Assembly: GCA_038824665.1 (NCBI GenBank)
Contig: JAWBBK010000006.1
Coordinates: 1 to 64,000 of the forward strand
Source of the DNA: Acidilobaceae archaeon
GTDB lineage: Archaea > Thermoproteota > Thermoprotei_A > Sulfolobales > Acidilobaceae
Direction: 5' to 3'
Length of the DNA: 64,000 bases
Shown piece after piece: positions 10,494 through 35,079 of the stretch (the stretch's first letter is position 1; every line of letters begins with the position of its first letter). The notes beneath the pieces are model-generated. The model was not told the DNA's origin. It ran no database searches and saw only the letters and a list, made by a program, of their open reading frames with translations. The translations under genes were made by a program, and so were the position numbers.

Positions 10494-10636
10494 CTCCTTC
10501 CACCTGGCTGACTCTCAATCCAGACACTAAGAGGATTCTTCTCAGCGTTATAATTCCTTTTGTTTAAGCCTGAAAGATGAAACGCTAGGTTAGCGATATA
10601 TTAGCGATACCGTTCTCTCTTATAGGAGAGCAGGAT

Positions 10637-11095
10637 TTGACTGAACTAATTGAGTACGTTATCGTAGTTCTTCTATCTATCATAGGAGGAACTCTAGGAG
10701 GAGCACTCACTACAACCGTTTTAAAAGATAAAACCTTATCTCTTCGAGCTATTTTCTTCAAGAAACCGTCTAGCGAAAAGAAGAGGTACATAGTTTTTGA
10801 AATAGCTACTACTGAATCCATCGAAGCTAACGAAGTAGCGAAAGCGATGGAAAGCGCTGCCAAAAAGCTACTAGGTGACCTAGGAGTTACTAAAGCCAGA
10901 TTTAAGCTTATTGAATATGACCCAAGTCTGAGAAGAGGAGTTCTGCGAGTTCGAAAAGAGTACAAATGGCACGCTCTAGCCGTGCTATCTCTAATCAGGG
11001 CTATAGGAGGGAAAAAAGTGTTCGTGATGCCTCTCGCCACCTCAGGCTCTCTTTGGAAAGCTAGAAAAAGAGCTGGACTAGTCAAAAAAATCTAG
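10637..11095 (+). CDS. rnp2: RNase P subunit Pop5/Rpp14 with hydrophobic N-terminal extension
   Basis: KKRYIVFEI, LLGDLG, GVLRV, TSGSL.KAR motifs. Confidence 0.85.
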   Translation: MTELIEYVIVVLLSIIGGTLGGALTTTVLKDKTLSLRAIFFKKPSSEKKRYIVFEIATTESIEANEVAKAMESAAKKLLGDLGVTKARFKLIEYDPSLRRGVLRVRKEYKWHALAVLSLIRAIGGKKVFVMPLATSGSLWKARKRAGLVKKI

Positions 11096-12584: not shown

Positions 12585-13259
12585 TTAAAATTTATAGAAG
12601 CGAGAAACATTGATAAAAGCTCTCTCAACTACTCTAGCTCCTGCTGAAGAAATCCAAGTTCTGGCTATAGCCTCAGGAACCCCTAAAGCAACTAACAACC
12701 CTACTATGTGATATGGGCTCCACATCTCCCACACATCTCTGCTATCGCTCGAAACGATCACCTCTAATCCAGATCTGAGAGCTCTCGTTATAGCTACATA
12801 AAGATAATCAAGCTTGTTTTCAACTAATACAGGTCTAAGTACGAGCTCTACAGCTCCCCAGCCTCGTTGAGCAAAAAGACGAACTTGAGATCTGTCTATA
12901 AACCTCTCAGCTCCTGGCTCTACTCTCGTCAGAACAACCTCCTTACATGTGGCTGAGTATCTTAAGGCATCGAGATCTTTCGCGCTCACAGCTAAAAGGA
13001 AGAAGTCTTTTTTCAAAGACTTCTTCACCTGGTCTATCTTGACTCTTACCTCTTTTCTAGTTCTTCCCTCTACTGTGACTCTTAAACAGAGTCTCAACCC
13101 AAGGTCTTCGCTCAGCTTGGACACTATTCCGTAGTCTATGGAGTCACTTGCCTCTAAACAGACAAGCTTATAGCCTAAAGATCTAGCTAGTCTAAGCATC
13201 TCAACAGCTGTCTCGGTATCTTTAGGTTTTAAACTGAGGTCTGCGAAGCTTTTTATCGT
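12585..13259 (-). CDS. rnp3: RNase P subunit Rpp30 (start extended to ACG 13259 or ATA 13256)
   Basis: ARSLGY, VIVSSD motifs; the in-frame upstream segment IKSFADLSLKP matches the Rpp30 N-terminal F.DL motif; superoperon context. Confidence 0.75.
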   Translation of the reverse strand, partial: TIKSFADLSLKPKDTETAVEMLRLARSLGYKLVCLEASDSIDYGIVSKLSEDLGLRLCLRVTVEGRTRKEVRVKIDQVKKSLKKDFFLLAVSAKDLDALRYSATCKEVVLTRVEPGAERFIDRSQVRLFAQRGWGAVELVLRPVLVENKLDYLYVAITRALRSGLEVIVSSDSRDVWEMWSPYHIVGLLVALGVPEAIARTWISSAGARVVERAFINVSRFYKF

Positions 13260-13687
13260 GAGAGCACCTCTTCGAGGAACTTAACTATCTCTCTCCTCTT
13301 ACCTGCTATATGAAAAGAGACCTTGATCACATCATCGCCTTCGCTTAGCTCAAGTGAGCCTTTATAAGAACTTTGCTTGTCGATCCTGATGAAAAACGAA
13401 CCGTTTTCATCTACGCGCTCGTCTAAGGTGGCTAAAAGTAGCCGTCTATCATGCTCTTTAAGTGAAGTTAGTATGTAAAGAAGAACTTCTGTAGAGAGCT
13501 GAGGATCTCTTATCTCTATCGAAAGAACTTCTATTCTGTTTCCATAATGTCCTTCGTAAACTTCGCTTTTGACCTCTGTTGAGTTCCGAAGAGATGGAGG
13601 TAGAACGTTTTTGAGAGCTTCTAGTACTTTTTCTCTGTCCTCGGTAGCGTGAACATGAGTTCTGAGCACGACTGAGGTGATAAACAT
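13253..13687 (-). CDS. DUF54 / exosome-superoperon RNA-binding protein
   Basis: HATED.EKV, EGHYGN.I, FIRIDKQ, DVIKV. Confidence 0.85.
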   Translation of the reverse strand: MFITSVVLRTHVHATEDREKVLEALKNVLPPSLRNSTEVKSEVYEGHYGNRIEVLSIEIRDPQLSTEVLLYILTSLKEHDRRLLLATLDERVDENGSFFIRIDKQSSYKGSLELSEGDDVIKVSFHIAGKRREIVKFLEEVLSR

Positions 13688-13720
13688 AGTCTAAAGCTCC
13701 CTATCTTTGCGGTCTCAACG

Positions 13721-14383
13721 CTACTTTTCGCTTGGCTTTATGAGTCTAGCTCCCCTACTTGCTTCGTGTCTCTTTCTGAGTTCTCTCTCTTTAGCTTTCT
13801 TCTTCCATTTATACTTATGAGTTCCTTTGAGTCCTCTCGACTTTAAAAGTCCTCTCATCTTCCTACCGGCACTAGTCAGACCTCTGAAAGGTCTGCCTTT
13901 ATGTTTGCCTGAACAAACCCAGTTGAGCTCAGGATCGCTTTTAATAGCTGGACAGTGAGGATCTACCAGTATTACCTCATACCACTTGTATCTACCGTCC
14001 TCGCCAACGTAGTAGCTGTTGAGAACCACTAGGTTCCTGTACTTTGCTTGAGCTCTTTCTTCAGCTATTAGTCTTAAGCTTTTAGCTGGAGCAAATCCGT
14101 AGACGCCCAGCCTCTTAGGCCTTCTGCCTTTGTTGGGTCTAGCTTTTCTTCTGCCCCCCTTTCTAACTCGTACTCTGACGACTATCACGCCCTGTTTGTC
14201 TTTGTAGCCTAGCTCTCGAGCTCTACCAAGTCTTGTAGGCTTGTCTACTCTGACTACTACTGGCTCTTTCCTCCACTCTATAAGCCTTAATCTCATTATC
14301 TGTGCGTGCTCTCCCTCATAGGGCTTCTTCCACCACTCCTCCATATATTGGTACGCTGATTTGGCCATATCCTTACACCACAC
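13721..14383 (-). CDS. rpl15e: 50S ribosomal protein L15e
   Basis: [46 protein letters not shown]. Confidence 0.97.
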
Positions 14384-14419
14384 CTTAGAGCAGTCCTACT
14401 CACACTCTAGAATCTGACC

Positions 14420-15955
14420 TTAAATAGCGACTAAAACTCTTTGGGGGTCTCTGCTCATCAAAACGTCTAGGTAACCGTATAGCTCTCTTCGTAAAGCTTC
14501 GGGGTCTGTATAGTTATCTTCAATCAGTTTAGACCACGGAGGCTCTTCTGCGGGGTCCCAGTCTTCTAACGCTCTCGCAGACCGCTCTCTAAGAGATGTC
14601 AAAAGGTTTCTGTAACCGCCGCCTCGCAAAGCAACGTCTAGAAGGACCTCGGATGCAGATACGTCAGCTCTTCCAAGAGCTATTTGAAGTTCTGCATAGT
14701 CTAGAGGATAGACTTCTATTTCGAACCCCTGCTTCCTGAGTGATTTAGCAAGCGTCACAGCTTTCTCAGCTCTTCTCTTTTTGAAGCCAAACCATTGAAG
14801 TGGGGTTGAAGGTTTAGGTATGAAAGGATTCAGAGACACTCTGACCCTAGCGTTTAAAGGTTGGAGGACTTTCCTTATTTCAAGCATCATGTCTAGAGTC
14901 TCTTTTAAGTCTTCGGCGCTCTCTCCAGGAAACCCTGCCATTAGATAAACCTTGACCTGTCTGATACCAGCTGAAGCCAGAATCTCTGAGGCTCTGATAG
15001 CTCCCATCTTTCCTGTAAGCTTCATGATAGCCCGAGCTATAGTAAAGCTCCCCGTCTCTGGAGCTATGGAGACAGTCTTCTGACCCCCTTCAACTAAGAG
15101 TTCTGCTCTCTTTTCTGTCAACGTCTCTGCTCTCAAGCTCGGAAGAGAGACCTCAAGACCTAGAGATACGGCATGTTCTAACAGAGTCTCTCCCCAAGGG
15201 CTATCGAAGAAAGACAAACTATACATAGAGACCTTGTTGACTTTATTATAAGAAGTTCCTAGCTCTAGGAGTTCTTTAAGCTTTTGGAGACTTCTGTCTC
15301 TTCTAGGCTTAAAAATACAACCCTCCATACAGAACCGACATCTTCTAAGACAACCTCTGCTAACCTCTAGAATGAAAGCTCTGCCCCATATAGGTTCAAC
15401 GTCTTCTGAGACCTCCTGAACTATGGGGTACCATGACTTATCGAGGTCTTTTACGTAAACTCTCTTGACTTTATGCGAAGTGTAATCTGGAACGAGTACT
15501 CCTTCTATCTCAGATAGAGTTCTAAGACGAGAGTGTCGAGAAGGCTTAGATAAAGCGTTGACCAAATCTTCAGCTATCTCTTCAAACTCTCCTATTACAA
15601 TTGCATCGGCTATCTCCCATATGGGAAGAGGGTTGCCTATAACAGCTGGACCTCCTACTATCACTATCGGGTCTTCCTCAGACCTCACTCTTCTAGCAAC
15701 AGGGACCCTCATTTCATGAAGCATTTTGACTAAGTCTAGATACAGAAGTTCAAAGGGAAGGCTGGCTAATAAGGCTGTGTTTGATTTGGGACTCTCTCTA
15801 TATCTAACTTTTTGTTTTACCTCACCACTCTCGAAAAAATACCTGCGTACCCCCACCTTGAGGTCTTCAAGAAGTCCTCCAATTAAGTGATATGCAAGAC
15901 TTGATAGCGCTACTCGCTCTTCGCTTGGATAAACGAGGCCTATCGTGACCAGCAG
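14420..15955 (-). CDS. Radical SAM protein with B12-binding-like N-domain (start extended to CTG 15955)
   Basis: EVSRGCLRRCRFC (CxxxCxxC), SLPSLR, IAPETGS, NPFIPKP.TP; upstream in-frame IGLVYPS...ALSSLAY N-terminal motif. Confidence 0.8.
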   Translation of the reverse strand: MLVTIGLVYPSEERVALSSLAYHLIGGLLEDLKVGVRRYFFESGEVKQKVRYRESPKSNTALLASLPFELLYLDLVKMLHEMRVPVARRVRSEEDPIVIVGGPAVIGNPLPIWEIADAIVIGEFEEIAEDLVNALSKPSRHSRLRTLSEIEGVLVPDYTSHKVKRVYVKDLDKSWYPIVQEVSEDVEPIWGRAFILEVSRGCLRRCRFCMEGCIFKPRRDRSLQKLKELLELGTSYNKVNKVSMYSLSFFDSPWGETLLEHAVSLGLEVSLPSLRAETLTEKRAELLVEGGQKTVSIAPETGSFTIARAIMKLTGKMGAIRASEILASAGIRQVKVYLMAGFPGESAEDLKETLDMMLEIRKVLQPLNARVRVSLNPFIPKPSTPLQWFGFKKRRAEKAVTLAKSLRKQGFEIEVYPLDYAELQIALGRADVSASEVLLDVALRGGGYRNLLTSLRERSARALEDWDPAEEPPWSKLIEDNYTDPEALRRELYGYLDVLMSRDPQRVLVAI

Positions 15956-17178
15956 TTGAACACCTCGCCGCTATCCACATCTCTAAAGACGACACAGCCT
16001 GGATATACGACTGCATATGACCCTATCTTGACTCCTGGCATTATAGAGACGTTTATCCCTATTTTAGCGTAGCCTCCAATCACTGAACCAAGCTTCTTGA
16101 GTCCCGTTTTTACTCTTACTCCCTTAACGGTCATCTCTACCGTCTGTTCGTTGAATCTCAAGTTGGCTATCTTAGACCCAGCTCCTAAGTTTACGTGCTC
16201 TCCGATTACGCTGTCGCCAACGTAATTCATGTGAGGTAATCTAGCTCTTTCGAGCAATACTGAAGACTTGACCTGAGAGAAGGGACCTACAAAGGATTCT
16301 TCACAAACAACTGTATTTCCTCTTACATGGGCTAGAGGACCTATAACTGCTCCTCGGCCTATGTAGGCTGGTCCTTCAACAACAGTATAGGGTTTAATAG
16401 AACTGTTTGACTCTACCACTATAGGTCCTGAGAGTTCAGCTCTTTCGCTTACGTCTCCTTTAATCACCTGTCCCTTTATCTCAGAGAGAGCTATGATATT
16501 GGCCTTGAGAAAGTCCCATGGTCTTCCTATGTCTATCCAAGAACCTTTGGGTATCGGAAACGTCTTGACCTCATACTGTTTAGAAAGGTCATTTAGTGCG
16601 TCCGTAGCCTCAAACTCTCCTCTAGGAGACGGCTTGAGGTTCTTGAAGAAGCTTAGATGCTCATAGCTTATTTTTAGAATTCCTGCGAAAACTAAAGATG
16701 GGCCGGTGATGTTTTGAGGTTTTTCAGTAATGCTTTTAAGAAAACCTTCAGAATCTATCTCAACCACTCCGTAGTTTCCAGCTTCTTCCACTTCAGTTAC
16801 AAAAACGCTTGGTGTAGTCGCTCTGGCTATAAGCTCGTAGACCTCAGACTTAATAAAAACATCACCATATATCACTGTATAGTCGCCTGGACCACCTGTC
16901 TCTATAGCTTTAGCTATGGCATCTCCTGTTCCTAACTCTCCTTTCTGATATACCAGCTCAACATCAACACCACATTTCTCAAGTTCCTTAATTACTAGGT
17001 CTGCTCCATAAGAGATTACGACAGCTATCTTATCATAACTACCTGTGGATGAAGCCTTCTTAATGTGTTTACATAACAACGACTCTCCAGCTACAGGAAG
17101 TACAACTTTAGGTCTGGTATCGGTTAAAGGTTTCAGTCTCTCTCCTTTGCCAGCAGCTAGCAAAACCAAATGCTTCAC
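15940..17178 (-). CDS. glmU: Bifunctional sugar-1-phosphate nucleotidylyltransferase/acetyltransferase (GlmU-like)
   Basis: LAAGKGERLKPLT.TRPK, SPRGEFE.TD, hexapeptide repeats, H.NYVGDS. Confidence 0.88.
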   Translation of the reverse strand: MKHLVLLAAGKGERLKPLTDTRPKVVLPVAGESLLCKHIKKASSTGSYDKIAVVISYGADLVIKELEKCGVDVELVYQKGELGTGDAIAKAIETGGPGDYTVIYGDVFIKSEVYELIARATTPSVFVTEVEEAGNYGVVEIDSEGFLKSITEKPQNITGPSLVFAGILKISYEHLSFFKNLKPSPRGEFEATDALNDLSKQYEVKTFPIPKGSWIDIGRPWDFLKANIIALSEIKGQVIKGDVSERAELSGPIVVESNSSIKPYTVVEGPAYIGRGAVIGPLAHVRGNTVVCEESFVGPFSQVKSSVLLERARLPHMNYVGDSVIGEHVNLGAGSKIANLRFNEQTVEMTVKGVRVKTGLKKLGSVIGGYAKIGINVSIMPGVKIGSYAVVYPGCVVFRDVDSGEVFNCWSR

Positions 17179-17647
17179 TCTTCTTCCCCACTGTTTGACA
17201 TCCGCTCAACCAAGATATAGAGTGTTTAACTTAAGAAGAAAAGAAGCTAAATAGAAAAGGTGTATAAATATAAAGGTCGGCTTCTCAGTAGCCGATAGCT
17301 CACAGATCTTCACGTTTTAGAAGTCTAGCCTCTTAGCCATCTGTTTCTTGGCGATCTTCATGAACTCCTCATTATAGAAGCTTCTGACAACCGCCGGCTA
17401 CTCAGCTTTCTGTGAAGTCTCGGAAAGTCAGAAAACAAATCAGCTATAGGAGGCTCTGAAGGTTAAAGGTCTTGAGCAGAACTTGGTGAGATGTGTCAAG
17501 ATAGAAGAGTGTGAACGACTACAAAACACATAAGCAAACTGAATGTGTATCGAAAAGAGAAAACAGCTTCAAGGTCTAATGTTAGCTACTAATTAAAATG
17601 TGAAGTCCTTGATGTCTAGATCCTCAAAAAAGCCAAAAACTACCTAG

Positions 17648-18301
17648 CTACCTAGCTTCTTTTTTGAGTTGAACAGGAGACACGACAACGGCTCTAATGG
17701 GACCCTCAGGTCCGGGTACCCAGAGCAGTTTAGATTTGATTACCTCTACTTTTCTTAGAGGATATATCTTTCTTGCCTGAGCTTCTATTAGCTGAGCTAG
17801 GCTGTTTTCTTTATCACTGAATATCATCGCATTTATCAGCTCGTCTAACGCGTGCTCTTTGGCATAGCTTTCAACGACTTCTTTCATCCTCTTCCTTATC
17901 TCCCTCTTCTGACTGGTATTGCACCTGTATCGCGTCCACACAACACATGTAAGTCTTAAACCATAGCCATCTTTTGTCCAGACGTCAAATATTCCTACGA
18001 CCTTTGAGGTCTTTCTTTTAGTAAGGCTTCTTACATAATCTCTTAGATGCTCGTGTCCTTTAAATCGGGTGTAAGCAGTGGTGCCGTCTACTTTGACGAT
18101 CTGAAACTTGAGCTTTATGTGAACATAAGTTATGTCGCCTGTGAGATCAAAGAGTGTCACCTCCATAGTCCTACCTATTAGCTTGTCTGGGTCGTCAGCT
18201 GGAGTAGTACCTAAAACAGTCTCTCCGAAGAGAGAAGGAGCTAACACAGTATACCACTTCTTAAGCTTCCACTTATCTCTTACTGAGACCCTTTTAGACA
18301 A
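17648..18301 (-). CDS. rps3ae: 30S ribosomal protein S3Ae (eS1)
   Basis: DKWK.KKWY.VLAP, GRTMEVTL.DLTGD, TKDGY, IYPLR. Confidence 0.96.
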   Translation of the reverse strand: MSKRVSVRDKWKLKKWYTVLAPSLFGETVLGTTPADDPDKLIGRTMEVTLFDLTGDITYVHIKLKFQIVKVDGTTAYTRFKGHEHLRDYVRSLTKRKTSKVVGIFDVWTKDGYGLRLTCVVWTRYRCNTSQKREIRKRMKEVVESYAKEHALDELINAMIFSDKENSLAQLIEAQARKIYPLRKVEVIKSKLLWVPGPEGPIRAVVVSPVQLKKEAR

Positions 18302-18338
18302 CCCTCTACCCCTAAGCCCCCTCGGATTCAGGACTTAA

Positions 18339-18623
18339 TTAAGCTTTATTGCTTGAATCCTCTAAATACTTCAGCGCTTCTGTTGCACTCTTTAAAGACA
18401 TGAGCATATCGTCTAAAGTGTTTCTTAAGCTTAACATCCTCTGGGGCTCACAGTCTTCGATCTCGACACTACAAATAAGCTTAGCCTCTCTGGCTTCACA
18501 CTTAACTTTAAGCCAGGAGGGAGCTGAAACGTTATCAGGTTCAAGAGCTTTCTCAAGAGCTAATGCGTAAGCGCTCTCTACCTCTAGATGTGCTTCACAT
18601 CGAGGGCTCTCTTCTCTATCCAA
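18339..18623 (-). CDS. pcc1: KEOPS subunit Pcc1
   Basis: ALEPDN and SLRNTLDD motifs; canonical position upstream of rps3ae. Confidence 0.8.
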   Translation of the reverse strand: MDREESPRCEAHLEVESAYALALEKALEPDNVSAPSWLKVKCEAREAKLICSVEIEDCEPQRMLSLRNTLDDMLMSLKSATEALKYLEDSSNKA

Positions 18624-19900
18624 ACCTTCTCACCGTCGAATTTAATTAAATTGGCTCTGTTGAGTTCATTCAAAGCCCCATAGCCCAAAGCTTCCTCTAT
18701 CTGGATTGGTGAAGCTAGAAACTCGTCACCTTCTTCGACTACAAGGATCGAATCGCTCTCTATAAAGCCATGGACTTTCAAAGCTCTCCAGAGGAGCGTC
18801 AAGGGTGCTCCAGGTTTAGCGCCTACAGAATAGACCTTGAAGCGTTGGGTGCTTCCGACCTTAGTTATCGAGCCTTCTGCAACTATGTTGGAAAGCACTT
18901 TAGCGCTAGATTCCAGTTGTGACTCAGCTAGAGGGATCTCTATCGAAAAGTCTAGCAGAGTAGCCACGACTCTCGCTAAGCTTCTTTCAGAGTCAGACGC
19001 GTAGATCAGAGCATCACAGGCCTCTCGATAGTCTTGAATAGGAGCCTCTCTGCTCTTAGAGACCAACATGCCCGCTACCATGTCTTTAGCTGATATCTTT
19101 GATCTGAAGTTAAGATGCATAAAATTTATGACTTGTTTCGCCAAGTACTCTATCTCCTTAGCATCTGTAATGCTAGAAAGAGGTTTACCTGCAACGCTTC
19201 TGTATTTTTCGATACCTAGAACCTCTTGACAACGCCAGGGATCACCAGCTAATCCCAGATAAAGAGGATAGGCAGTCGTGGATATGGCTTCACAAAACTC
19301 TAGCACGTGAGGCTTGTATACCTTGATAGTGGTAACTATATCGAGCCCGGGCAGACTAGAGGAGAGCTTCTCGACGAGAACTCTGTCAAGACCTGACAGC
19401 TTGCCTACAGAGTCTACATAATTGCCAGCATGTATGCCTAAGAGAGTCATCGACGCTAAATCGATGCCTATGTTGTTCGTTCCTCCAGTGACTACTAGCG
19501 TCGCTATAGCTACGTTGCTCCCCTGTCCTCCAACGAAAGTAGTTCCGTGAACGGGAATTGACTCTACAGAGCCAGACGCTATAGCGAGCATAGGACTAGT
19601 TACGTTAGATGGATGGTAGTCCACTCTGTTGTACCCCAAAAGGACCGTAGGCTCATCAATTATAGGAGGAGGGTTGAGAGAGACCTTGATAGATACTTCA
19701 GCACCAACTCGAAGAACTCTAGACGCTACTATGACTCCAGCTACGATAGGGTCTAAGTTTGGATACACCCTAATGACTAGTCTATCTCTCGAAGACGAAG
19801 CCTCGAGAATCTGATAAAACGCTCTATACGCTGCCTCAAGAGCTCTCTCAAGATCTCTAGCTGTTGGCAATAAAGCAAGTTTCAGCAAGAGGCGTCCCAA
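18584..19900 (-). CDS. Degenerate RecJ/Cdc45-like protein (DHH motifs lost)
   Basis: Occupies the DHH-gene slot of the conserved rps15-recJ-pcc1-rps3ae operon; YPNLDPIVAG at the motif I position; P.YLGLAGD remnant. Confidence 0.6.
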   Translation of the reverse strand: MGRLLLKLALLPTARDLERALEAAYRAFYQILEASSSRDRLVIRVYPNLDPIVAGVIVASRVLRVGAEVSIKVSLNPPPIIDEPTVLLGYNRVDYHPSNVTSPMLAIASGSVESIPVHGTTFVGGQGSNVAIATLVVTGGTNNIGIDLASMTLLGIHAGNYVDSVGKLSGLDRVLVEKLSSSLPGLDIVTTIKVYKPHVLEFCEAISTTAYPLYLGLAGDPWRCQEVLGIEKYRSVAGKPLSSITDAKEIEYLAKQVINFMHLNFRSKISAKDMVAGMLVSKSREAPIQDYREACDALIYASDSERSLARVVATLLDFSIEIPLAESQLESSAKVLSNIVAEGSITKVGSTQRFKVYSVGAKPGAPLTLLWRALKVHGFIESDSILVVEEGDEFLASPIQIEEALGYGALNELNRANLIKFDGEKVWIEKRALDVKHI

Positions 19901-19978
19901 CTACTCTAGAGATCCAGGAGACTAAAAACGTCCCGACCCTCAAGATAGCGTAGAGGTTTTGAAAAGTAACATTATAGA

Positions 19979-20440
19979 TTAAAGACCTGCGCCAGCGACT
20001 AGGAGTTCTGCTTTCTGTGGGTCATAGCTCCAATCTGCTGGAAGCTTTCCCACTCGCTTGTAATATTTCACCAGCCTGTGTATCTTAGACTCTATATCGA
20101 TGAGCCCTCTCTTGGCGTGAGTGTCCTTAGGATGTTCTTGTAGATGTCTTCTTAAATTAACTGCTTTCTTTATGAGATAAAATAGGTCTTCGGGAACCTT
20201 AGGAGCTAAACCCTTCTCTTCTAAGATTTCAGTTATGGACTTGCCCAGTATGGGCTTTACCAAGGGAACGCCGAACTGATCTCTCAATATCAATCCTATC
20301 ATGCTAGGACCATATCCTTTTTTAGCCAGCTCTTCTATGACCAGCTCTATCTCTTCAGGAGTATAAGTCAGCCACGTCGGCGGCGTAGGTCTTGCTGGTC
20401 TCATAGAGCCAGAGCTTCCCTTCTTCTTTCGTTTATTCAT
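19979..20440 (-). CDS. rps15: 30S ribosomal protein S15 (uS15)
   Basis: [34 protein letters not shown]. Confidence 0.97.
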
Positions 20441-20527
20441 CTTCTGTCTCCCTAGCTTCGCTCTAAGAGTTAGCTTATAAACATTATTTTAGCCTAGCTC
20501 CCTTCAAAAAGCCAAAGGGCTAGAAGC

Positions 20528-21643
20528 TTGGACATAGAGACGAGAATGAAGACGATAGTTAGAAACGCTGTCGAAATAGTCACGCTAGAAGAGCTGAGGT
20601 CTAAGCTAGAAAGCGGAGAGAAGCTCAAAGGATATATAGGCTATGAGCCTAGCGGTCTTGTTCATGTGGGTTGGCTAGTCTGGTTCTTCAAGGTCTGGGA
20701 CTTGGTAGAGGCTGGAGTAGACTTTACAGTGCTAGAAGCCACATGGCATGCCTTCATAAACGACAAGCTCGGAGGAGATATGGACCTGATAAGAAAGGCT
20801 AGCAGACTCACGCGCGAAGTTATGGAAGCTCTTGGGATCCCTGTAGACAAGATCAGGTTCGTAGATGCAGAAGAGCTAACCTCTGACCCGAACTACTGGG
20901 CTTTAGTTCTCGAGGTTATGAAAAACAACAGTCTAGCTAGGATTAAACGAAGCTTAACTATTATGGGTAGAAGAGTTGAAGAGGCTGAACTTGACGCCTC
21001 TAAGCTAGTTTATCCAGCTATGCAAGTCTCCGATATATATTATTTAGACTTAGACATAGCTTTAGGAGGAATGGATCAAAGAAAAGCACATATGCTAGCT
21101 AGAGACACTGCTGAGAAGAAGAGACTTCAAGAGTTCTACGAACGTATTAGAGGCAAGAAGTTGAAGAAGCCTATAGCTATACATACACCTATAATAACGA
21201 GTCTTCAAGGACCTGGTTCAAGAATGGACGTATCTGAAACTGAGATAGACGAGATCTATTCAAGCGTTAAGATGAGTAAGTCGAAGCCCGACTCCGCGAT
21301 CTTCGTTCATGACTCACCGGAAGCCATAGTTGAAAAGCTGAGAAAAGCCTACTGTCCTCCCAGACAGCTAGAATACAACCCAGTGATTGAGATAGCCAGT
21401 CACGTTCTAGGCGCACGAGGTCAACTAACGCTTAGGATAGAAAGACCTTCTAAATATGGAGGACCTTTAGAGATAACTAGCGTAGAGGAGCTGAAAGATG
21501 TCTACTCGAGAGGTGAAATACATCCGCTAGATCTTAAGAACGCTGTATCTGAAGCTCTCATCAAGCTTCTCGAACCAGCTAGAAAGCTCCTAAAAAGCAG
21601 AGAGGACTTAATCAGAGAAGTTGAGAGTCGCGTAACTAGATGA
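20528..21643 (+). CDS. tyrS: Tyrosyl-tRNA synthetase
   Basis: YIGYEPSG.VHVG, YPAMQVSD, GG.DQRKAH, KMSKS. Confidence 0.96.
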   Translation: MDIETRMKTIVRNAVEIVTLEELRSKLESGEKLKGYIGYEPSGLVHVGWLVWFFKVWDLVEAGVDFTVLEATWHAFINDKLGGDMDLIRKASRLTREVMEALGIPVDKIRFVDAEELTSDPNYWALVLEVMKNNSLARIKRSLTIMGRRVEEAELDASKLVYPAMQVSDIYYLDLDIALGGMDQRKAHMLARDTAEKKRLQEFYERIRGKKLKKPIAIHTPIITSLQGPGSRMDVSETEIDEIYSSVKMSKSKPDSAIFVHDSPEAIVEKLRKAYCPPRQLEYNPVIEIASHVLGARGQLTLRIERPSKYGGPLEITSVEELKDVYSRGEIHPLDLKNAVSEALIKLLEPARKLLKSREDLIREVESRVTR

Positions 21644-21689
21644 GTTCTGGAAGCGGTTTCTAAAACATATCCTCCTTAGGTGTAACGTT

Positions 21690-22841
21690 GTGAGATTCTC
21701 TGAGATATATAGAGAGATCTCTCCCATTGCTTTAGTGCTCTTCATAAATGAAGTAGCGACAGCAACTTACTTCTTTAGCTCAAGAGCTTTCATACGAGTT
21801 CTCATGGGTGAAGATGTCTACAGATACGTGATCCTTCTTATAAGCTTTGAGAGCATCGCTAACCTTTTTGCTCTTTTAGGAGGAGTTCTAGGAGATCTTT
21901 ACGGTCGTAGAATCATAGCGTTGCTTTCAGGTCTCAGAGCTCTCACATACTTCTCTATACCTTTAGCTATTACGTATGACCTAAAGCTAACTTTCGCTTT
22001 ATTTTTTGTGAGCAAAGTCTTTGATGGATTGTTCTTCTCAAATGCGTTGGGAACTCTTCTATCCAGGTCTAAAGGTTCAGGAAGACTTTATGCTACGTCT
22101 TCTACAATCTTTCCTATTGCTTGGAGCATCGGGTCTCTGGTTCCAGGACTCTTAGAACCTCGAGGAGGTTATACTCTCATCTTTACTTTCATAGGGGTCG
22201 CTACCTTATTCGCATCGTTGTTTTTAGCTGTAGTAGGTAAAGAGAGCAAGAGAGCCAAACACGAAGACCTTGTTAAAGCCTTCTCTATGTTGCCTAGGAC
22301 TTTCTTAATGGGCGTTATTATAGCAGAAGCTGGATTAGTGCTTTATTGGAACCTCCTCTCAATAAAACTTTACGAAACTACAGGAAGTTTGCTTCTCTTC
22401 GGTCTCATAGGAGGCACATTGACCACTATGGCTTCTGTCTTGGTTTATCCTCTAGCTGGAATCATAGTCGATAAGATCCATCCGTCGAGATTCTTAGGAG
22501 TAGTATACATCGCTTACCTGACCTATGGATTAATGATGTACTTTTTCAGCGGTCTTCTATTCGCGATCTTGTGGGTCCTGCCCCTCTATCCCTTCAAAGT
22601 CGTAGCGTTGACTGTGACTCTTAGCAGAACTCTTCCAAAGACATTTCAGAACACAGCCGCTGGCATCACATCTCTAATCTACGGTCTCTCTGGCCTCATT
22701 TATTCTTTGTTTTATTTTGTTGACCTTGACCTTTTTGAAGTGCTTTCTTTATATGTATTTGCGCTGACTATTGGAGCCTTAGCAATTATAAAGGCTAACT
22801 TTAGAATGTTGTCACCTAAAGCTGAAGAGACTAGCTACTAG
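21690..22841 (+). CDS. MFS transporter
   Basis: About 12 TM segments; G.LGDLYGRR motif A. Confidence 0.85.
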   Translation: MRFSEIYREISPIALVLFINEVATATYFFSSRAFIRVLMGEDVYRYVILLISFESIANLFALLGGVLGDLYGRRIIALLSGLRALTYFSIPLAITYDLKLTFALFFVSKVFDGLFFSNALGTLLSRSKGSGRLYATSSTIFPIAWSIGSLVPGLLEPRGGYTLIFTFIGVATLFASLFLAVVGKESKRAKHEDLVKAFSMLPRTFLMGVIIAEAGLVLYWNLLSIKLYETTGSLLLFGLIGGTLTTMASVLVYPLAGIIVDKIHPSRFLGVVYIAYLTYGLMMYFFSGLLFAILWVLPLYPFKVVALTVTLSRTLPKTFQNTAAGITSLIYGLSGLIYSLFYFVDLDLFEVLSLYVFALTIGALAIIKANFRMLSPKAEETSY

Positions 22842-23949
22842 AAGTTAGTCTTCTATATTTTTCTTCAGCATCACGCACAAGGTCTTCATTAGAAAGTCCA
22901 CCATACCTAGACAGCTCGTAGTCTAATGTCAGGTCTCTAAAAGCCTGAGCTTTCTCTCTTAAGTCTTTCTCTGTGATCAATAAAAACTCTCTATGTGTCA
23001 TGCTGTCTTCCATAATCCTATTTGTCCTCTTTTCTACAAAGTCTACAGCTTTCCAGTAAAGCCCCATCACCCCGCCCTGTTTAGACGCAATCGACTTCCA
23101 AGATCGTTCGATTCTCTGTGTCTCCAACGTTGTCACACCGCTTAACAATACTTTCAAAAGCGGATAGCTGAAGACCAACAGAGCGCTAGCAAAAAGAAGA
23201 GGTGCAATAACGCCAAGAGAGGGAAGTTGAGTCAACATATCGAAACTGATACCGGCTTGAGGTAGTTGTGGACTCGGTAGACCCAACGGTTTTTCTGAAG
23301 TGTCGACTAGACTCCAGTTTTCCGTAGCGGTGAGAGAGTTATACAAGAGTTCTTTCGCCATCTGTACGAGCGTTTTGGCTTGCTCTGACGAGATTTCATT
23401 AAGTAGAGAGCTGTATCCAGCGTTCTCTGCGTATCTTTTAAGAACCTCTAGCACGAGCTGATAGTCAGTGATCTTAAGTTTATCCTCATAAAAGGATTGA
23501 CGAGCTTGTTCTAAAAGGTTCTTTAGCTTTAAGATATCGAGAACACCTTCAAAATTGATCTCTTTTAAGATCTCAGCCCACTCTTTATTCTCTATAGAGT
23601 TTATAAGGTCTTCAATAGAAGCCTCAGATAAATGTGAATAGCTTAGATTGTATTGCGCTAAAAGCTCTTCTAAAGCTATTCTAGCCTTGGGGTCTTCAGC
23701 TAGGCACTCTACGGAGCTACAGTTTTCATGAACAAGCTCTAGGAATCTCTTTAAGTCCTCTTCGCTCCAACCTTTCCCTTGATTTTGTAAAATATCATTA
23801 AGATAATAGAGTAGAGCCTCTAAGTAGTTTATCTTTTGAGGAAAACCGAGAGTGTGTAGCTTCGTAGCTATCAGACCTTCTTCACTAGCCAAGACTACTT
23901 GAGCTAAAAAAGCAATAGTTATGATGATTATAATTATGAGTTTTCTCAT
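22831..23949 (-). CDS. DUF4129-like membrane protein (MoxR cluster)
   Basis: Signal peptide, one TM, C-terminal SMTHREF...LT..YE.SRYG. Confidence 0.7.
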   Translation of the reverse strand: MRKLIIIIIITIAFLAQVVLASEEGLIATKLHTLGFPQKINYLEALLYYLNDILQNQGKGWSEEDLKRFLELVHENCSSVECLAEDPKARIALEELLAQYNLSYSHLSEASIEDLINSIENKEWAEILKEINFEGVLDILKLKNLLEQARQSFYEDKLKITDYQLVLEVLKRYAENAGYSSLLNEISSEQAKTLVQMAKELLYNSLTATENWSLVDTSEKPLGLPSPQLPQAGISFDMLTQLPSLGVIAPLLFASALLVFSYPLLKVLLSGVTTLETQRIERSWKSIASKQGGVMGLYWKAVDFVEKRTNRIMEDSMTHREFLLITEKDLREKAQAFRDLTLDYELSRYGGLSNEDLVRDAEEKYRRLTSSS

Positions 23950-25067
23950 GGAACTGCACCTATTACTTTCAAGATTCCTTCAATTAATCTAAAGAAGAAA
24001 GAATAGTCGTCTATAACTTTTCTCAGAACATCGTTCAGCCTCGATAGCTCCAAAAAACCTGAGCTAGGGTCCCAATATCCTATAAAGTATGCAACTACAT
24101 AAAACGATAGGATCAAAGCGAGTCCCGCTAACACCATAAAGAGAGAAGGCTCTTCGTTCCAGCTCATTTTTAATATCTGAGAAGTTAAAAGCCAGAACAA
24201 AGAGAAGGTAGCGTATGCAATTACCATCGATACTAAGAACTGAGAGAAAGGACTCAACTCTAAGGTCTGCACTTTTTCAAACAAGAGCTTGTTAAACAGG
24301 AGATAGAATGGAGGAGTCAAAAGTAAAGCCGCCATAGCGCTTCTCAGCGAAGCTAGAGGGGGTCTTAGTTGTACTTCTTCGCCTGACTTTTCCAAGAACA
24401 ACAAGGAGAGCATCCTCGAAGGTTTGATGAAAAGAGCTAAAACCTCTATCACTCTGAACGTTGCAATATATGTAAGGACTAAGAAAACGCTTATAGTGAT
24501 CAACCTGAAAAGAGGATTAATCGATGCAAACTCAATTAGTGGAGTCAGAGACGGCTCAGCTATCGACTCTGTCGCTCTCTCTAGAACGAGAGTCGCTCTC
24601 CATAAAAATGTACCCAGAAGTATCGATAAACATATGAACACTAAAACAAGCATAACAAACGAAACTATGAAAGAAACCTGTTTATGTATTTTTAAAGATT
24701 TGTAAAAACCAGGTCTCCAAGAGGTCTCAAGAGAACTAAAGATGCTAATAATCGGTAAAGGAGCTATTGTTATCAAAGACAAATCGAGGTCAGAAGCTAC
24801 AGTGAGAACAACAGAAAAGGCGTGTAGCAGAGGATTTAGAAAAGCCAAAGCCAGAAGTACAAGAGTCAGAGAAACTAATGGGATCGTCTTGATTACAACA
24901 TTAAAAAGTAATCCCACATCGTTATTTAAAACTGCATTGTAGACCTCATTGAAAACAGTAAGAGAAGGAGCTTCGGATACGAGTTTTAGTAAGAAGTCTA
25001 TTGAAATGATTGTTGCAGCTAGTCTGAAGAATATTTTGAGCTTTAAGTCAGCTGCCACTCTAGACAC
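23946..25067 (-). CDS. Multi-pass membrane protein (MoxR cluster)
   Basis: Long hydrophobic ORF translationally coupled to its neighbours. Confidence 0.65.
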   Translation of the reverse strand: MSRVAADLKLKIFFRLAATIISIDFLLKLVSEAPSLTVFNEVYNAVLNNDVGLLFNVVIKTIPLVSLTLVLLALAFLNPLLHAFSVVLTVASDLDLSLITIAPLPIISIFSSLETSWRPGFYKSLKIHKQVSFIVSFVMLVLVFICLSILLGTFLWRATLVLERATESIAEPSLTPLIEFASINPLFRLITISVFLVLTYIATFRVIEVLALFIKPSRMLSLLFLEKSGEEVQLRPPLASLRSAMAALLLTPPFYLLFNKLLFEKVQTLELSPFSQFLVSMVIAYATFSLFWLLTSQILKMSWNEEPSLFMVLAGLALILSFYVVAYFIGYWDPSSGFLELSRLNDVLRKVIDDYSFFFRLIEGILKVIGAVP

Positions 25068-26409
25068 CTCTTTGTGCTTCTAACTTCATTAAGATCTTTG
25101 TGGCCATGTCTCGAGGCGTTACTACGACCGCTCTAAACCCTCTTTTTCTGAGGTCCTTCGTTTTAGAGAACGCTTCCCGTATCTCCTGGTAGGTTCTCAC
25201 TCTATAGACTGCTCTTTCGAACTCCGATAGCTCTTCTACGCCATACAGATGAGGAAGAAATACAAAAAAGTTTAGAGAGACCCCCCGAATGTTAGATAGA
25301 CCTTTGAGAGCTTCTGCTGCTACGTCTGCTATTCTTGCTGTAGTCACTACTATAACGTTAACCTTATCTCTGGGTAGGATTTTCGACAACCTCTTCTCTA
25401 AAGCAAAAAGTCGCGAACGGAGCTGTTCTGAAGATTCTCGAATCTTGAAGTCTTGAAAGTCTATTTCAGAGAGCAACCGCATTAGTTCAACAAAGCCTTT
25501 TCTCCCAGGATAGAAGTTTGAAACCATTTCTCTTTTGGGAGTAGATACGGCTAAGGCAATATTGTCGTTATTGTTAGCCAGATGTCTGACTATAGAGCCC
25601 AACACACGCATCGAGTGTTCGAGAGGGGTATTGAGATATGGGCCGTAGATCATGTCTTCACATGTTATAAGCACGAAGAGAGCATACAGACTTGACTCTC
25701 TTTCATATTCTTTTACTATAAGTTTTCCTTTAGTCAGAGCGTGCCAAAGGATCCTTCTAAGTTCATCTCCTGGAGAATAGTTTCTTACAGAATAAAACTC
25801 AACACCTTCTCCAGGACGTCTAGTTCTGGTCAGACCTGTACTTCTTGAAGTAGAGAGAACGACTTTTGAGATCTTTTGTTCAATGCGAGGAGTTATCTTA
25901 ATGACTATGGGGTCTCCGAGAGTTATTTCAGAACTTCTAAAGAATCCGAACGGATCTCTATAAGTTGCTCTCAAAGGACCTAAGACGTGTGAGCCGGGCC
26001 TGCTCTCGAATTCTGCTTTGTACTCAAAACATCCTCTCGGCGAGATCACGGACAACCCTCCAGGAGCCCCTTTTATAGATAAATGTTCTGGATATGAAAG
26101 CGAGAACTCGACTAAGGCTATAGGTAAGAGTGAACCGTTACACACTAAATAGTTTAATCGTAAAGGTTTTCCTTCTTCGCTTCCCTCGGCTCTAACAGAA
26201 ACTTTACAACTAGCAAGCATTAAAGCAGCGATAAGACTGTAAGCTCTTAGGACTAAAACAAAGACTACTATCGAAAAGCCCACCCACCCTAAAGACGATA
26301 TTTTAAAGACATCAAGCACTATAAAGTATGAGGCTATAATCAAAGGCGCTAACACTCTGTTAGTAGAGAAGACTACAGCCTCGTTACTGCTCGGTAGAGT
26401 TGTGTTCAT
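25060..26409 (-). CDS. DUF58 (vWA-like) protein
   Basis: RDPFGFF, G.EFYSVRNY.PGDELRRI.W, LIVKEYE. Confidence 0.88.
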   Translation of the reverse strand: MNTTLPSSNEAVVFSTNRVLAPLIIASYFIVLDVFKISSLGWVGFSIVVFVLVLRAYSLIAALMLASCKVSVRAEGSEEGKPLRLNYLVCNGSLLPIALVEFSLSYPEHLSIKGAPGGLSVISPRGCFEYKAEFESRPGSHVLGPLRATYRDPFGFFRSSEITLGDPIVIKITPRIEQKISKVVLSTSRSTGLTRTRRPGEGVEFYSVRNYSPGDELRRILWHALTKGKLIVKEYERESSLYALFVLITCEDMIYGPYLNTPLEHSMRVLGSIVRHLANNNDNIALAVSTPKREMVSNFYPGRKGFVELMRLLSEIDFQDFKIRESSEQLRSRLFALEKRLSKILPRDKVNVIVVTTARIADVAAEALKGLSNIRGVSLNFFVFLPHLYGVEELSEFERAVYRVRTYQEIREAFSKTKDLRKRGFRAVVVTPRDMATKILMKLEAQRGV

Positions 26410-27776
26410 AGACGTCTCTCCTCTAAGCCTTCAAGCTTCTTTAACGACGTTCCGAGAACTTTGAGAACTTCTTCACTTTGGGCGAGCGCCTTCTTAACAA
26501 TTCTTCCCCAAAGTACTACGGGTGGCCAAAACCTCCTGCCCCTTGCTCTATCGTAGTATCTATTCATGAACTCCCAATAGCTTTTAGCGTAGTTTCTCTC
26601 TACTCCATGGGATTCGAGAACAGAAATAGCCTCTAGAGATGTCAGAGACGTTCCAGTAACGGATTTTAAAACAGAATCCACTATTGTATAGAGCTGAATA
26701 AAATCCTCTTTGTCCAAGCTTTTCTCTCGTATTGTCTTCCTAAACACTTCATAACCGTACCACTTGACCTCTCTAACGTCTTTAAGTGGCTCGTCTCTGA
26801 CCTTCTCTTCGTAGAGAGCTAAGATTAGCGCAAACCCTAACGACAAGCCTACTAGAAAGAGAGTTCTCATGAAATCCAAGCTGAATAGCGTAACAATAAC
26901 TCTATCTATAAAGTTTAAAAGAGGTGGAAGCCATGTTGATGGATGTAAAACTATCGAGATCAGAGATATCATCAAGTTGAGTGGATCAAACAACTGAATC
27001 ATTTCTAAGAAACTTTCGTCTTCTTGAGCCAAGGCAGACAAAATGCTTAACGGATTTACCTGCTGATATTTTGATGCCTCTAAAAGCACTATGCAATCTC
27101 TTTCACAAAGGCCCTCTACTGTTGCTCTAGCAAAGCCGATATACACATCAGAATGATTAGACCTAAAAACCTGATTAAGGAATATCGAGCCGTCTCCTAT
27201 CACGAAAGCTGAAACCCTTCCTTTATCCTCATATGCATAGAACGTATCATTCTCTATCTTAGAAAATACCTTTGAGGGATTGTCGAGAATTAACGTTCCT
27301 TTCCAGCCCCAAGGAGTCTCGATGTAAACAGGTACGTGATCCTGGATTATGGATCCCTCAATTCTGACCGCTAGTCCGAAAGTCTCAAGTACCGCATTAG
27401 TGTTTCCCGTTTCATCAGCTATGAGAAGAGCCAGTTTTTGACATCTATCGAAAAACTTCCTTACGTGAAACAATTCGCTTTCGCTGTAGCTTAGCTCAGG
27501 AGACACTATTACTATCAGAACTTTATCGCATTTATCCACGATGTCTGCGATCATTTTCCAATCATATACGAGAAAGACTTGACGATCTTCAGACAACAAT
27601 TTATAGAAATCACTAAGACCTAAAGGACCTTCGTTTAGAGGATGAGCACCTGGAGCTAAAGGAAGTATATAGGGTCCTTTCTCAAGTAATGCTATTAGGG
27701 TTATGAGTAGGAGAGCTAAAAGTAGCTTTGTGGAAAGAAGAGAAAAAGTTGGAAGTGCTATTTTATCTTTACTCGT
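26406..27776 (-). CDS. DUF4350-like membrane protein (start extended to ACG 27776)
   Basis: LLIADE.G, IGDGSIFLNQ; in-frame upstream TM helix and HPLNEGPLGLSDF motif. Confidence 0.65.
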   Translation of the reverse strand, partial: TSKDKIALPTFSLLSTKLLLALLLITLIALLEKGPYILPLAPGAHPLNEGPLGLSDFYKLLSEDRQVFLVYDWKMIADIVDKCDKVLIVIVSPELSYSESELFHVRKFFDRCQKLALLIADETGNTNAVLETFGLAVRIEGSIIQDHVPVYIETPWGWKGTLILDNPSKVFSKIENDTFYAYEDKGRVSAFVIGDGSIFLNQVFRSNHSDVYIGFARATVEGLCERDCIVLLEASKYQQVNPLSILSALAQEDESFLEMIQLFDPLNLMISLISIVLHPSTWLPPLLNFIDRVIVTLFSLDFMRTLFLVGLSLGFALILALYEEKVRDEPLKDVREVKWYGYEVFRKTIREKSLDKEDFIQLYTIVDSVLKSVTGTSLTSLEAISVLESHGVERNYAKSYWEFMNRYYDRARGRRFWPPVVLWGRIVKKALAQSEEVLKVLGTSLKKLEGLEERRL

Positions 27777-28059
27777 AGTCCCACCTCAACTCTTGGTCTT
27801 CTTCTTTTCCTCCATCTTCACTCTTCAAAGAAGCTCCATAGATGTATGCTGAAAGCCTCAAGACATAAAGCGCTCCTGAAAACAGAGTGAAACCTGTTAT
27901 TGCAGAAAGTAAAGAAGTCGCTACGTATCCTCGCTCCATGTAGCTCAAAGACCAGAGTAAAAATATAAGTGAGACAACGAGAAGAGCTAGCCCCAAACCC
28001 AGGTATATGGCCCATCTGAGCGATTCTCTCCTGAATTCGCGCACGATCACCGCCCTCAC
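27769..28059 (-). CDS. Small two-TM membrane protein (MoxR cluster)
   Basis: GTGA overlap with the moxR stop; two hydrophobic helices. Confidence 0.65.
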   Translation of the reverse strand: MRAVIVREFRRESLRWAIYLGLGLALLVVSLIFLLWSLSYMERGYVATSLLSAITGFTLFSGALYVLRLSAYIYGASLKSEDGGKEEDQELRWDYE

Positions 28060-34637: not shown

Positions 34638-35054
34638 ATGGGGACGGCTTTGAGTGAGCCGAGAGGAGAGCTGGAAGAGGTAGCAGGAGTTAAGGAAGAG
34701 GAAAAAGAAACTCTGCCTACAGCAGACGAAGAAAGCGCGTTGACGGTTGAGACAGAAGCAATAATGTCTTCAGCTGAAGAAACACCTATATATGATGTAA
34801 GCAAGCCAGAACTTCTTGAAGTAATGGTAACTGCCTCGGAAATATTAGAGAAAGCGGCTTCAGGAATGATCACAATCGAAGATGCTAAAAAACTTTATGT
34901 AAAAGCCGTGTTGGAACAAATGAAGAAGTTCGTAGGAGAAGGTGTGATAGTTAAGATCAAAAAGAGAAAGAAGAAAGCCAAGGAAAGAACGAAGAAGAGA
35001 GAAAAGAAAACTAAGAAACAAGGAAAGAAGACTAAAAAAGAAAAGGCTGGTTGA
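34638..35054 (+). CDS. rpo13: RNA polymerase subunit Rpo13-like protein
   Basis: Acidic N-terminus, helical core ELL...EI....G.I.IEDAKKL, Lys/Arg-rich tail; same architecture as Sulfolobus Rpo13. Confidence 0.6.
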   Translation: MGTALSEPRGELEEVAGVKEEEKETLPTADEESALTVETEAIMSSAEETPIYDVSKPELLEVMVTASEILEKAASGMITIEDAKKLYVKAVLEQMKKFVGEGVIVKIKKRKKKAKERTKKREKKTKKQGKKTKKEKAG

Positions 35055-35079
35055 AAAGAAGAGGGCAAGGATAGCTGTC

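Follow-up and report, generated by a model that had tools for sequence, protein, structure and literature searches.

The DNA analyzed here (the window) is a stretch of 64,000 nucleotides (nt) from an Acidilobaceae archaeon (assembly GCA_038824665.1, contig JAWBBK010000006.1, positions 1 to 64,000). The genome (G000, in which the window is contig C6) comprises 1.10 Mb, is 83% complete, has 44.6% GC and is present in hot-spring metagenomes. Three genes on the minus strand are at issue: rpp30, a gene for a B12-binding-type radical S-adenosylmethionine (SAM) protein, and a gene for a DUF4350-like membrane protein (Table 1). An initial annotation had proposed that each starts at a near-cognate codon exactly 5 nt after a GAGGTG Shine-Dalgarno (SD) motif. 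Comparisons with related genomes suggest that the three genes, which have no standard start codon, are probably translated from ATA, CTG and ACG by SD-set positioning, in a genome-wide and group-wide habit and not as a device of these operons.

Table 1. Features of the three start regions (window coordinates; aa, amino acids; CDS, coding sequence; G001, congener; G024, outgroup)
Feature	Position	Strand	Basis or remark
rpp30 (RNase P subunit p30) CDS read from ATA, 223 aa	12585..13256	-	Pfam PF01876; structure match
ATA, most likely rpp30 start, 8 nt after SD	13254..13256	-	Kept in G001 as ATA(G)
ACG, rpp30 start of the initial annotation, 5 nt after SD, possible but less likely	13257..13259	-	Not conserved in G001
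GAGGTG SD of rpp30	13265..13270	-	Identical in G001; complementary to 16S 3' end GATCACCTCC of G001 and G024
Gene upstream of rpp30, PF01877 RNA-binding protein	13253..13687	-	Pfam
B12-binding-type radical SAM gene read from CTG, 511 aa	14420..15955	-	Pfam PF19864, PF04055
CTG CTG, candidate starts 5 and 8 nt after SD	15950..15955	-	Both kept in G001
GAGGTG SD of radical SAM gene, inside 3' end of glmU-like gene	15961..15966	-	Sequence
Gene upstream of radical SAM gene, archaeal GlmU-type nucleotidylyltransferase/acetyltransferase	15940..17178	-	TIGR03992 above cut-off
DUF4350-like membrane protein read from ACG, 456 aa	26406..27776	-	Weak Pfam PF14258
ACG, likely DUF4350 start	27774..27776	-	G001 has ATG at about the same place (2-codon indel)
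GAGGTG SD of DUF4350	27782..27787	-	Overlaps in-frame TGA 27786-27788
Small membrane protein upstream of DUF4350	27769..28059	-	Last codons depend on a 1-nt length polymorphism at 27799

Start regions of the three genes

The three contexts of SD motif and near-cognate codon (ACG at 13259, CTG at 15955 and ACG at 27776) read in the window exactly as proposed, and no ATG, GTG or TTG occurs from the upstream in-frame stop to the first canonical codon in any of the three genes. The in-frame stop lies 7, 5 and 3 codons upstream of the proposed codon in rpp30, the radical SAM gene and the DUF4350 gene, respectively, and the first canonical codon lies 20, 33 and 59 codons downstream (at 13199, 15856 and 27599).

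We checked the bases in assembled public contigs, not raw reads, from three studies, one of which may be the source of the window. The sites at 13259 and 27776 were unaltered in contigs X1, X3 and X4, and the site at 15955 was unaltered in X1. Ordinary strain differences occurred near the start sites in X1, X3 and X4, none of them at 13259 or 27776. Contig X2 spanned all three start sites, and X5-X7 covered the stretch in patches only. Sequencing error at the start codons was ruled out by the identical bases in public contigs and, for ATA and CTG, in the congener.

The relatives searched were this congener (G001; 89% complete; median protein identity 70%) and 39 other genomes. The rpp30 context of G001 reads GAGGTG-ctctc-GAG-ATA. 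Because the congener keeps ATA and has GAG at the position of the ACG chosen in the initial annotation, ATA at 13256 appears more likely to be the rpp30 start than ACG at 13259. This ATA gives a 4-nt overlap (ATAA) with the upstream stop, one base apart from the ATGA geometry. Among 29 evaluable rpp30 loci, 20 had a canonical start within 3 codons, three had one 7-9 codons upstream, and six had none: G000, G001, G007 (ATT at 8 nt), G013 and G023 (both ACG) and G006, the last four being from three other genera.

In an alignment of 27 Rpp30 sequences, an invariant aspartate (D6) and a near-invariant proline (P11) both precede the first ATG. The structural model (predicted local distance difference test [pLDDT] score 93) places a strand at residues 4-9 and a helix at residues 14-27 of the N-terminus, with the first ATG falling in the middle of the helix. 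It matches archaeal Rpp30 (6k0b_C) with a template modeling (TM) score of 0.74 over 219 columns; a search of the Protein Data Bank with the single sequence gave no match, and a profile search did. The signal of selection on the rpp30 extension is modest, since comparison with G001 yielded four synonymous and eight non-synonymous changes; third positions account for 10 of the 19 substitutions.

The radical SAM protein is TIGR03960-like, below the cut-off. Its gene retains CTG CTG in G001, where it has no canonical start either, and the first CTG (15955) is the positional homologue of a GTG in relatives; in several of these, the GTG is formed by Lys-Cys codons of the upstream gene. All 16 other evaluable genomes of the family have a canonical start within -5 to +3 codons, and G010 reads GAGGTG-tataa-GTG, which supports the CTG at 15955 named in the initial annotation. 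The gene of G038, from another family, also lacks a canonical start. Beyond the overlap with the upstream gene, we counted 13 synonymous vs. 4 non-synonymous changes in the extension relative to G001, and the model (pLDDT 93) has a strand at residues 4-9 and helices at residues 13-31. The downstream GTG (15856) is absent in G001, where the first canonical codon is codon 45, and is replaced by an alanine codon in P0004 of the same cluster. As a separate observation, contig X2 lacks 1 nt at 14443, which shortens the C-terminus of the radical SAM protein as in P0004-P0006.

The DUF4350 extension has a predicted hydrophobic anchor at about residues 6-38 (hydropathy peak 2.54), and codons 13-59 differ from those of G001 by 23 synonymous and 12 non-synonymous changes. 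The orthologues in G001 and other close relatives start with ATG. Contigs X1, X2 and X4 lack one base at 27799; in this commoner allele, the upstream gene ends in ...KS*, like that of G001, and stops at the TGA at 27786-27788, 9 nt upstream of the ACG. Thus, the initial annotation was right to place the SD motif inside the 3' end of the upstream gene for rpp30 and the radical SAM gene; for DUF4350 the overlap exists in the window's allele only.

Judged from these substitution patterns and models, the N-terminal extensions are real and under purifying selection, and contain the predicted first strand and helix or membrane anchor. A set of downstream canonical starts, gene decay or assembly errors is therefore a very improbable explanation. 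In public gene calls, the radical SAM protein does begin at the downstream GTG and has 478 amino acids, which makes it 33 residues short, and the species-specific ACG of DUF4350 could reflect recent loss. However, the shorter products would lose the first strand predicted for each of the two folds and the membrane anchor, essential genes are affected, and the same bases occur in the contigs of three studies as well as, for ATA and CTG, in the congener. The initial annotation had considered three cases hard to explain as independent errors, and the contigs, the congener and the genome-wide test described below bear it out, pointing to real near-cognate starts.

SD spacing across the genome

A genome-wide scan for genes whose N-terminus lacks ATG, GTG or TTG, as the initial annotation had called for, was run on 986 ortholog pairs of G000 and G001 with a coding signature. 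The raw test, which scored genes with no such codon before at least 10 conserved codons, gave 47 hits in G000 and 41 in G001, with 18 in both; the radical SAM gene fell on a stretch boundary in this two-genome test. By eye, we listed about two dozen G000 genes with near-cognate starts. These 24 comprise 12 CTG, four ACG, two ATT, two ATA and one each of ATC, TTA, TCG and GTA, include LeuRS, HisG, ThiE, thymidylate kinase and Pth2, and are non-canonical at the same place in G001 in about nine cases.

Canonical starts in G000 lie 5, 6, 7 and 8 nt after GAGGTG in 3, 19, 30 and 13 cases, respectively. The 5-nt rule of the initial annotation consequently did not hold: 7 nt is the usual distance, also for 14 of the 24 near-cognate genes, and 5 nt is used but uncommon. 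The three genes of the window, at 8 nt (ATA), 5 or 8 nt (CTG) and 5 nt (ACG), all fall inside the range of canonical starts. The GAGGTG of rpp30 and of the radical SAM gene is a Glu-Val codon pair of the upstream gene, and this frame permits only 5, 8 or 11 nt, so that the threefold occurrence of exactly 5 nt carries less weight than it seemed to.

In the raw set of G000, CTG, ATT, ATA, ATC or ACG occurred at 11 of 25 SD positions at 6-8 nt vs. 3 of 81 at 2-4 and 10-16 nt (p=3.8e-6), and the same comparison in G001 gave 8 of 28 vs. 8 of 92 (p=0.012). With frames matched, near-cognate codons stood at 9 of 13 positions 7 nt after the SD vs. 2 of 54 (p=8e-7); all of these p values are indicative only, because the SD positions are not independent. 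No near-cognate peak appeared when all 561 GAGGTG sites were taken regardless of genes, and the signal was present only in genes without a canonical start.

Removing the known start from ordinary genes made the test fire in 91 of 281, a sensitivity at which the roughly 2% of genes seen may mean about 6% in truth. From the opposite direction, 9 of 452 confident starts in G001 had no canonical partner in G000, and five of these nine read CTG, ACG or ATA there; 5 of 428 confident starts in G000 had no canonical partner in G001. A three-way test (553/558 trios) missed rpp30 and the radical SAM gene and included rRNA shadow frames.

The proposed SD-set positioning would work as follows. Pairing of the SD motif with the 16S rRNA end would fix the peptidyl (P) site 5-8 nt downstream, mostly at 7 nt, where the ordinary initiator methionyl-tRNA would accept a mismatched codon at a reduced rate, giving lower output than from ATG. 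Archaea do not scan over long distances; their initiation complex is brought close to the start by the SD beforehand (PMC6237735, PMC7531240), and weak starts accompany stronger SDs (PMC5622118). Such codons would have arisen mostly by single transitions (TTG to CTG, ATG to ACG or ATA, ATGA to ATAA), which would be tolerated because the SD compensates. Start positions show one-base swaps with TTG, GTG or ATG in relatives, and most cases are one transition away from a relative's start, which fits drift tolerated under an SD. Canonical starts in G000 are themselves mixed: among 248 with a strong SD, 97 are ATG, 79 GTG and 72 TTG.

Editing of mRNA from C to U, a process that creates starts in plant organelles, could also turn ACG into AUG, CUG into UUG or UCG into UUG, and 17 of the 24 codons (12 CTG, 4 ACG and 1 TCG) are one such change from a canonical start. 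We regard it as extremely improbable, given that the other seven (ATA, ATT, ATC, TTA and GTA) are not convertible and that T-to-C transitions are the expected mutational path anyway. A search for one deaminase family, PF00383, in the 83% and 89% complete genomes G000 and G001 found no member, which also speaks against editing.

Several points weigh against our preferred explanation by SD-set positioning. In two of the three genes, more than one codon could be the start (ACG or ATA; CTG or CTG), and the ACG of DUF4350 occurs in this species only, at the uncommon 5-nt spacing. The 24 genes were picked by eye, the 47 raw hits include an intron, frameshifts and shadow frames, and the dependence among SD positions affects the spacing tests. 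Six of the 24 have an SD score of 10 or lower; the median score is 14 for near-cognate vs. 13 for canonical genes, so any compensation by the SD is weak at best. Some genes (the cimA-like and transketolase genes described below) are without any convincing start. At the RNA level, metatranscriptome X9 gave 0 reads from the approximately 3 in 100 of the run that was sampled.

Relatives, overlaps and the initiation machinery

The initial annotation had attributed the three starts to a relaxation confined to this lineage, acting during coupled reinitiation and possibly tuning stoichiometry. We consider such a loss of fidelity in termination-reinitiation at overlaps unlikely. In its favor, ATA in rpp30 forms a 4-nt overlap and the SD lies inside the upstream open reading frame (ORF) of rpp30 and the radical SAM gene, as in described pairs (PMC6728339). 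The overlaps measure 4 nt (rpp30), 16 nt (radical SAM) and 8 nt (DUF4350, which by allele has a 9-nt gap instead). However, overlap or near-touch with the upstream gene was not enriched, being found in 6 of 24 near-cognate vs. 163 of 424 canonical SD-led genes (p=0.20; upstream genes with orthologues only), and the DUF4350 overlap is absent in X1, X2, X4 and G001. Among 4-nt overlaps, each of the two genomes has two ATA cases without a canonical start, alongside similar numbers of GTA, TTA or CTG, which makes this tally uninformative. Loose start selection in this organism was supported, and coupling was not.

Comparison with related genomes, which the initial annotation had also suggested, showed ATA and CTG to be kept in G001 and near-cognate cases to occur in other genera and families. 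The habit is therefore not restricted to this lineage: examples are rpp30 in three other genera, uS9 of G007 and, in a similar test on 306 flanking genes taken from 38 other genomes, seven hits (one of them the candidate frameshift in the primase large subunit PriL, and three of them genes chosen because of the window). Such cases indicate a habit common to the whole group. A modest excess of near-cognate starts in this genus is possible; raw counts exceeded those of the outgroup G024, of which the comparison covers 1.2 of 1.6 Mb (75%), with 12 vs. 5 and 11 vs. 2 of 455 (p=0.14 and 0.02; sensitivities 0.23-0.30).

In the uS9 gene of G007 (L285), a TTA 7 nt after the SD aligns exactly with the GTG of G000 and G014 and the TTG of G017; this was seen in one genome and may be an error, and the first canonical codon lies 77 codons into the aligned part.

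Inspection of aIF1 and aIF1A for substitutions at fidelity sites, likewise proposed at the outset, turned up none in loop 1 of aIF1, which reads KRRFGK, or in aIF1A of G001; that of G000 is cut by a contig end. In Pyrococcus abyssi aIF1, the loop 1 residues are R31, Y32 and K34 (PMC6237735), and the matching positions here read R-F-G-K, as in most relatives. The GDHR/GDQR region matches relatives as well, and a Lys-to-Glu/Asp change in a helix occurs in several genera. One Thr-to-Val change (LAVGG) is common to G000, G001 and G007 and not found in the other 27 usable relatives; it would fit a lineage-specific trait, and we draw no effect on fidelity from it. The initiator tRNA, identical in G000 and G001, is standard, starts with A and has GGG/CCC in the anticodon stem; aIF2-beta is ordinary, as is the uS9 tail, which ends in Arg. 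The 16S 3' end is unassembled in G000, and G001 has a standard anti-SD. No altered initiation machinery was found among these parts: loop 1 of aIF1, the initiator tRNA, the uS9 tail and the anti-SD of G001 are all standard.

Gene-specific regulation like that of infC would keep a weak start on certain genes, above all rpp30, so that output tracks initiation-factor activity or stays low. This idea, which we find decidedly unlikely, draws on the absence of a canonical rpp30 start in 6 of 29 genomes from four genera with differing codons (ATA, ATT and ACG), on the predominance of TTG or GTG among the 20 canonical rpp30 starts, and on the genes, about nine, that are non-canonical in both species at approximately 70% protein identity. 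By contrast, the affected genes are functionally mixed, many swap freely with TTG or GTG in the congener, aIF1 itself starts with ATG, and in the radical SAM gene the CTG is dictated by the Cys-Trp codons that the overlapping gene has there.

Isolated near-cognate starts are already known. In Staphylothermus marinus, an ATC start has been proposed for L12ae (Smar_1096; PMC2678158), which is likewise a crenarchaeal essential gene with no valid start codon whose start was inferred from homologues; that report, in its accessible part, describes a single case, unlike the roughly two dozen genes, at least six codons and statistical tie to SD spacing found here. In bacteria, infC (ATT/ATA), pcnB (ATT), Deinococcus dnaA (ATC) and rpsL (CTG) have near-cognate starts (PMC2830850), which, as here, lie on conserved genes and are kept across related species. 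As far as the accessible text of that source goes, the Deinococcus dnaA and rpsL starts have peptide evidence and the regulation of infC and pcnB is known, whereas the present, putative cases include ACG and possibly two-mismatch codons, and show codons that swap between species. TTG starts serve 52% of proteins in Aeropyrum pernix (PMC5911459), a crenarchaeon that also has SD-led genes and a weak preference for ATG; the accessible text of that report deals with ATG, GTG and TTG only, and the present cases go one base further. The pairs described for termination-reinitiation (PMC6728339, where one Sulfolobus pair was not coupled) resemble rpp30 in having an SD in the upstream ORF and a 4-nt overlap, unlike our near-cognate starts in general, which are not enriched in overlaps. 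Ribosome profiling (Ribo-seq) of Methanosarcina mazei gave CTG starts for 5% of new small ORFs (PMC11456600), and switches to CUG or AUU number a handful among about 69,000 annotation-based starts (PMC5622118). A search of the open-access literature turned up no publication that describes such a habit, ACG included, across an archaeal genome.

Two-mismatch codons, further loci and meaning

A bolder version of SD-set positioning, a serious possibility that we would stop short of calling probable, holds that the start is set mainly by the distance from the SD, so that even two-mismatch codons (TTA, GTA and TCG, all at 7 nt) would be used. Examples are TTA in uS9 of G007 and in one gene of both G000 and G001, GTA/TTA in Pth2, and TCG in thymidylate kinase and in PriL of G001.

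In Pth2 (G000 contig C1, 234,064, plus strand; L143, L286-L305), GTA in G000 and TTA in G001 stand 7 nt after GGGTG, and a 5-codon GTG mini-ORF overlaps the start site in both. In all 20 other family genomes examined, a canonical start precedes the conserved core by at most 10 codons.

The cimA/leuA-type HMGL-like gene (G000 contig C5, minus strand; L160:5740-5800) reads GTG GTG GTN TAG AAA TCC before DTTLRDG in both species. Canonical starts are missing over 52 and 42 codons, respectively, G001 does not even offer a one-mismatch codon, and translation would need read-through of TAG or a start at AAA. In both G000 and G001, the gene for the transketolase N-terminal subunit (G000 contig C1, minus strand; L108, L201) lacks a canonical start; these two genomes and G024 share an out-of-frame ATG (MEFRQY; MERQY in G024) as well as an in-frame ATA. 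Within the window, the plus-strand frames at 34951-36528 and 10589-11092 are conserved in G001 for 35 and 13 codons, respectively, before the first canonical codon and may be further near-cognate starts or overlap effects.

By sequence comparison, the PriL gene (G000 contig C1, about 355,950; L258:1060-1110, L260, L266) looks as if it needs a +1 frameshift and is a conserved candidate for one. In G000, G001 and G020, a conserved K/R-Y-P-F motif in the -1 frame falls on one and the same 10-mer, TACCCCTTTC; frame 0 then carries the long ORF onward, its first canonical codon lying 57, 26 and 105 codons in, respectively. The short frame has ATG in G020 and only ATC (G000) or TCG (G001), 7 nt after GGAGGTG. 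Of the 30 loci, the remaining 27, one of which is interrupted by a contig end, showed no shifted motif; nor did four further genomes, and G007 has an in-frame MSLRKYPFL. We found no paper on a PriL frameshift, and the accessible part of a review (PMC8211752) does not mention primase. The rpp30 gene of G006 reads GTG AGC GGC TTT C TAC ATA GAC, with the GTG one base out of frame and a TTT-C run like that of PriL; it is a single genome, and this may be an error.

A cbf5-like gene (52022-52849, minus strand) has its frame closed just before a conserved motif in both G000 and G001, presumably by the expected crenarchaeal cbf5 intron. Together with other gene content, this suggests that the genome is crenarchaeal. 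Length polymorphisms among runs occurred at 14375, 14443, 17225 and 27799. That at 14375, where X1, X2 and X4 lack 5 nt, argues that rpl15e starts at the ATG of MAKSAY and not at the listed GTG.

Gene finders restricted to ATG, GTG and TTG truncate proteins of the kind described here, and present counts of near-cognate starts in archaea may be far too low. How strict archaeal aIF1 and aIF2 are about the start codon could readily be tested on the natural one-base swaps, in which the SD distance is fixed; these swaps also bear on why some crenarchaea prefer weak starts (PMC5911459). If starts are dictated by position, at least 5% of proteins would carry wrong annotations, and aIF1 would proofread the P site far less strictly than is the case in eukaryotes.

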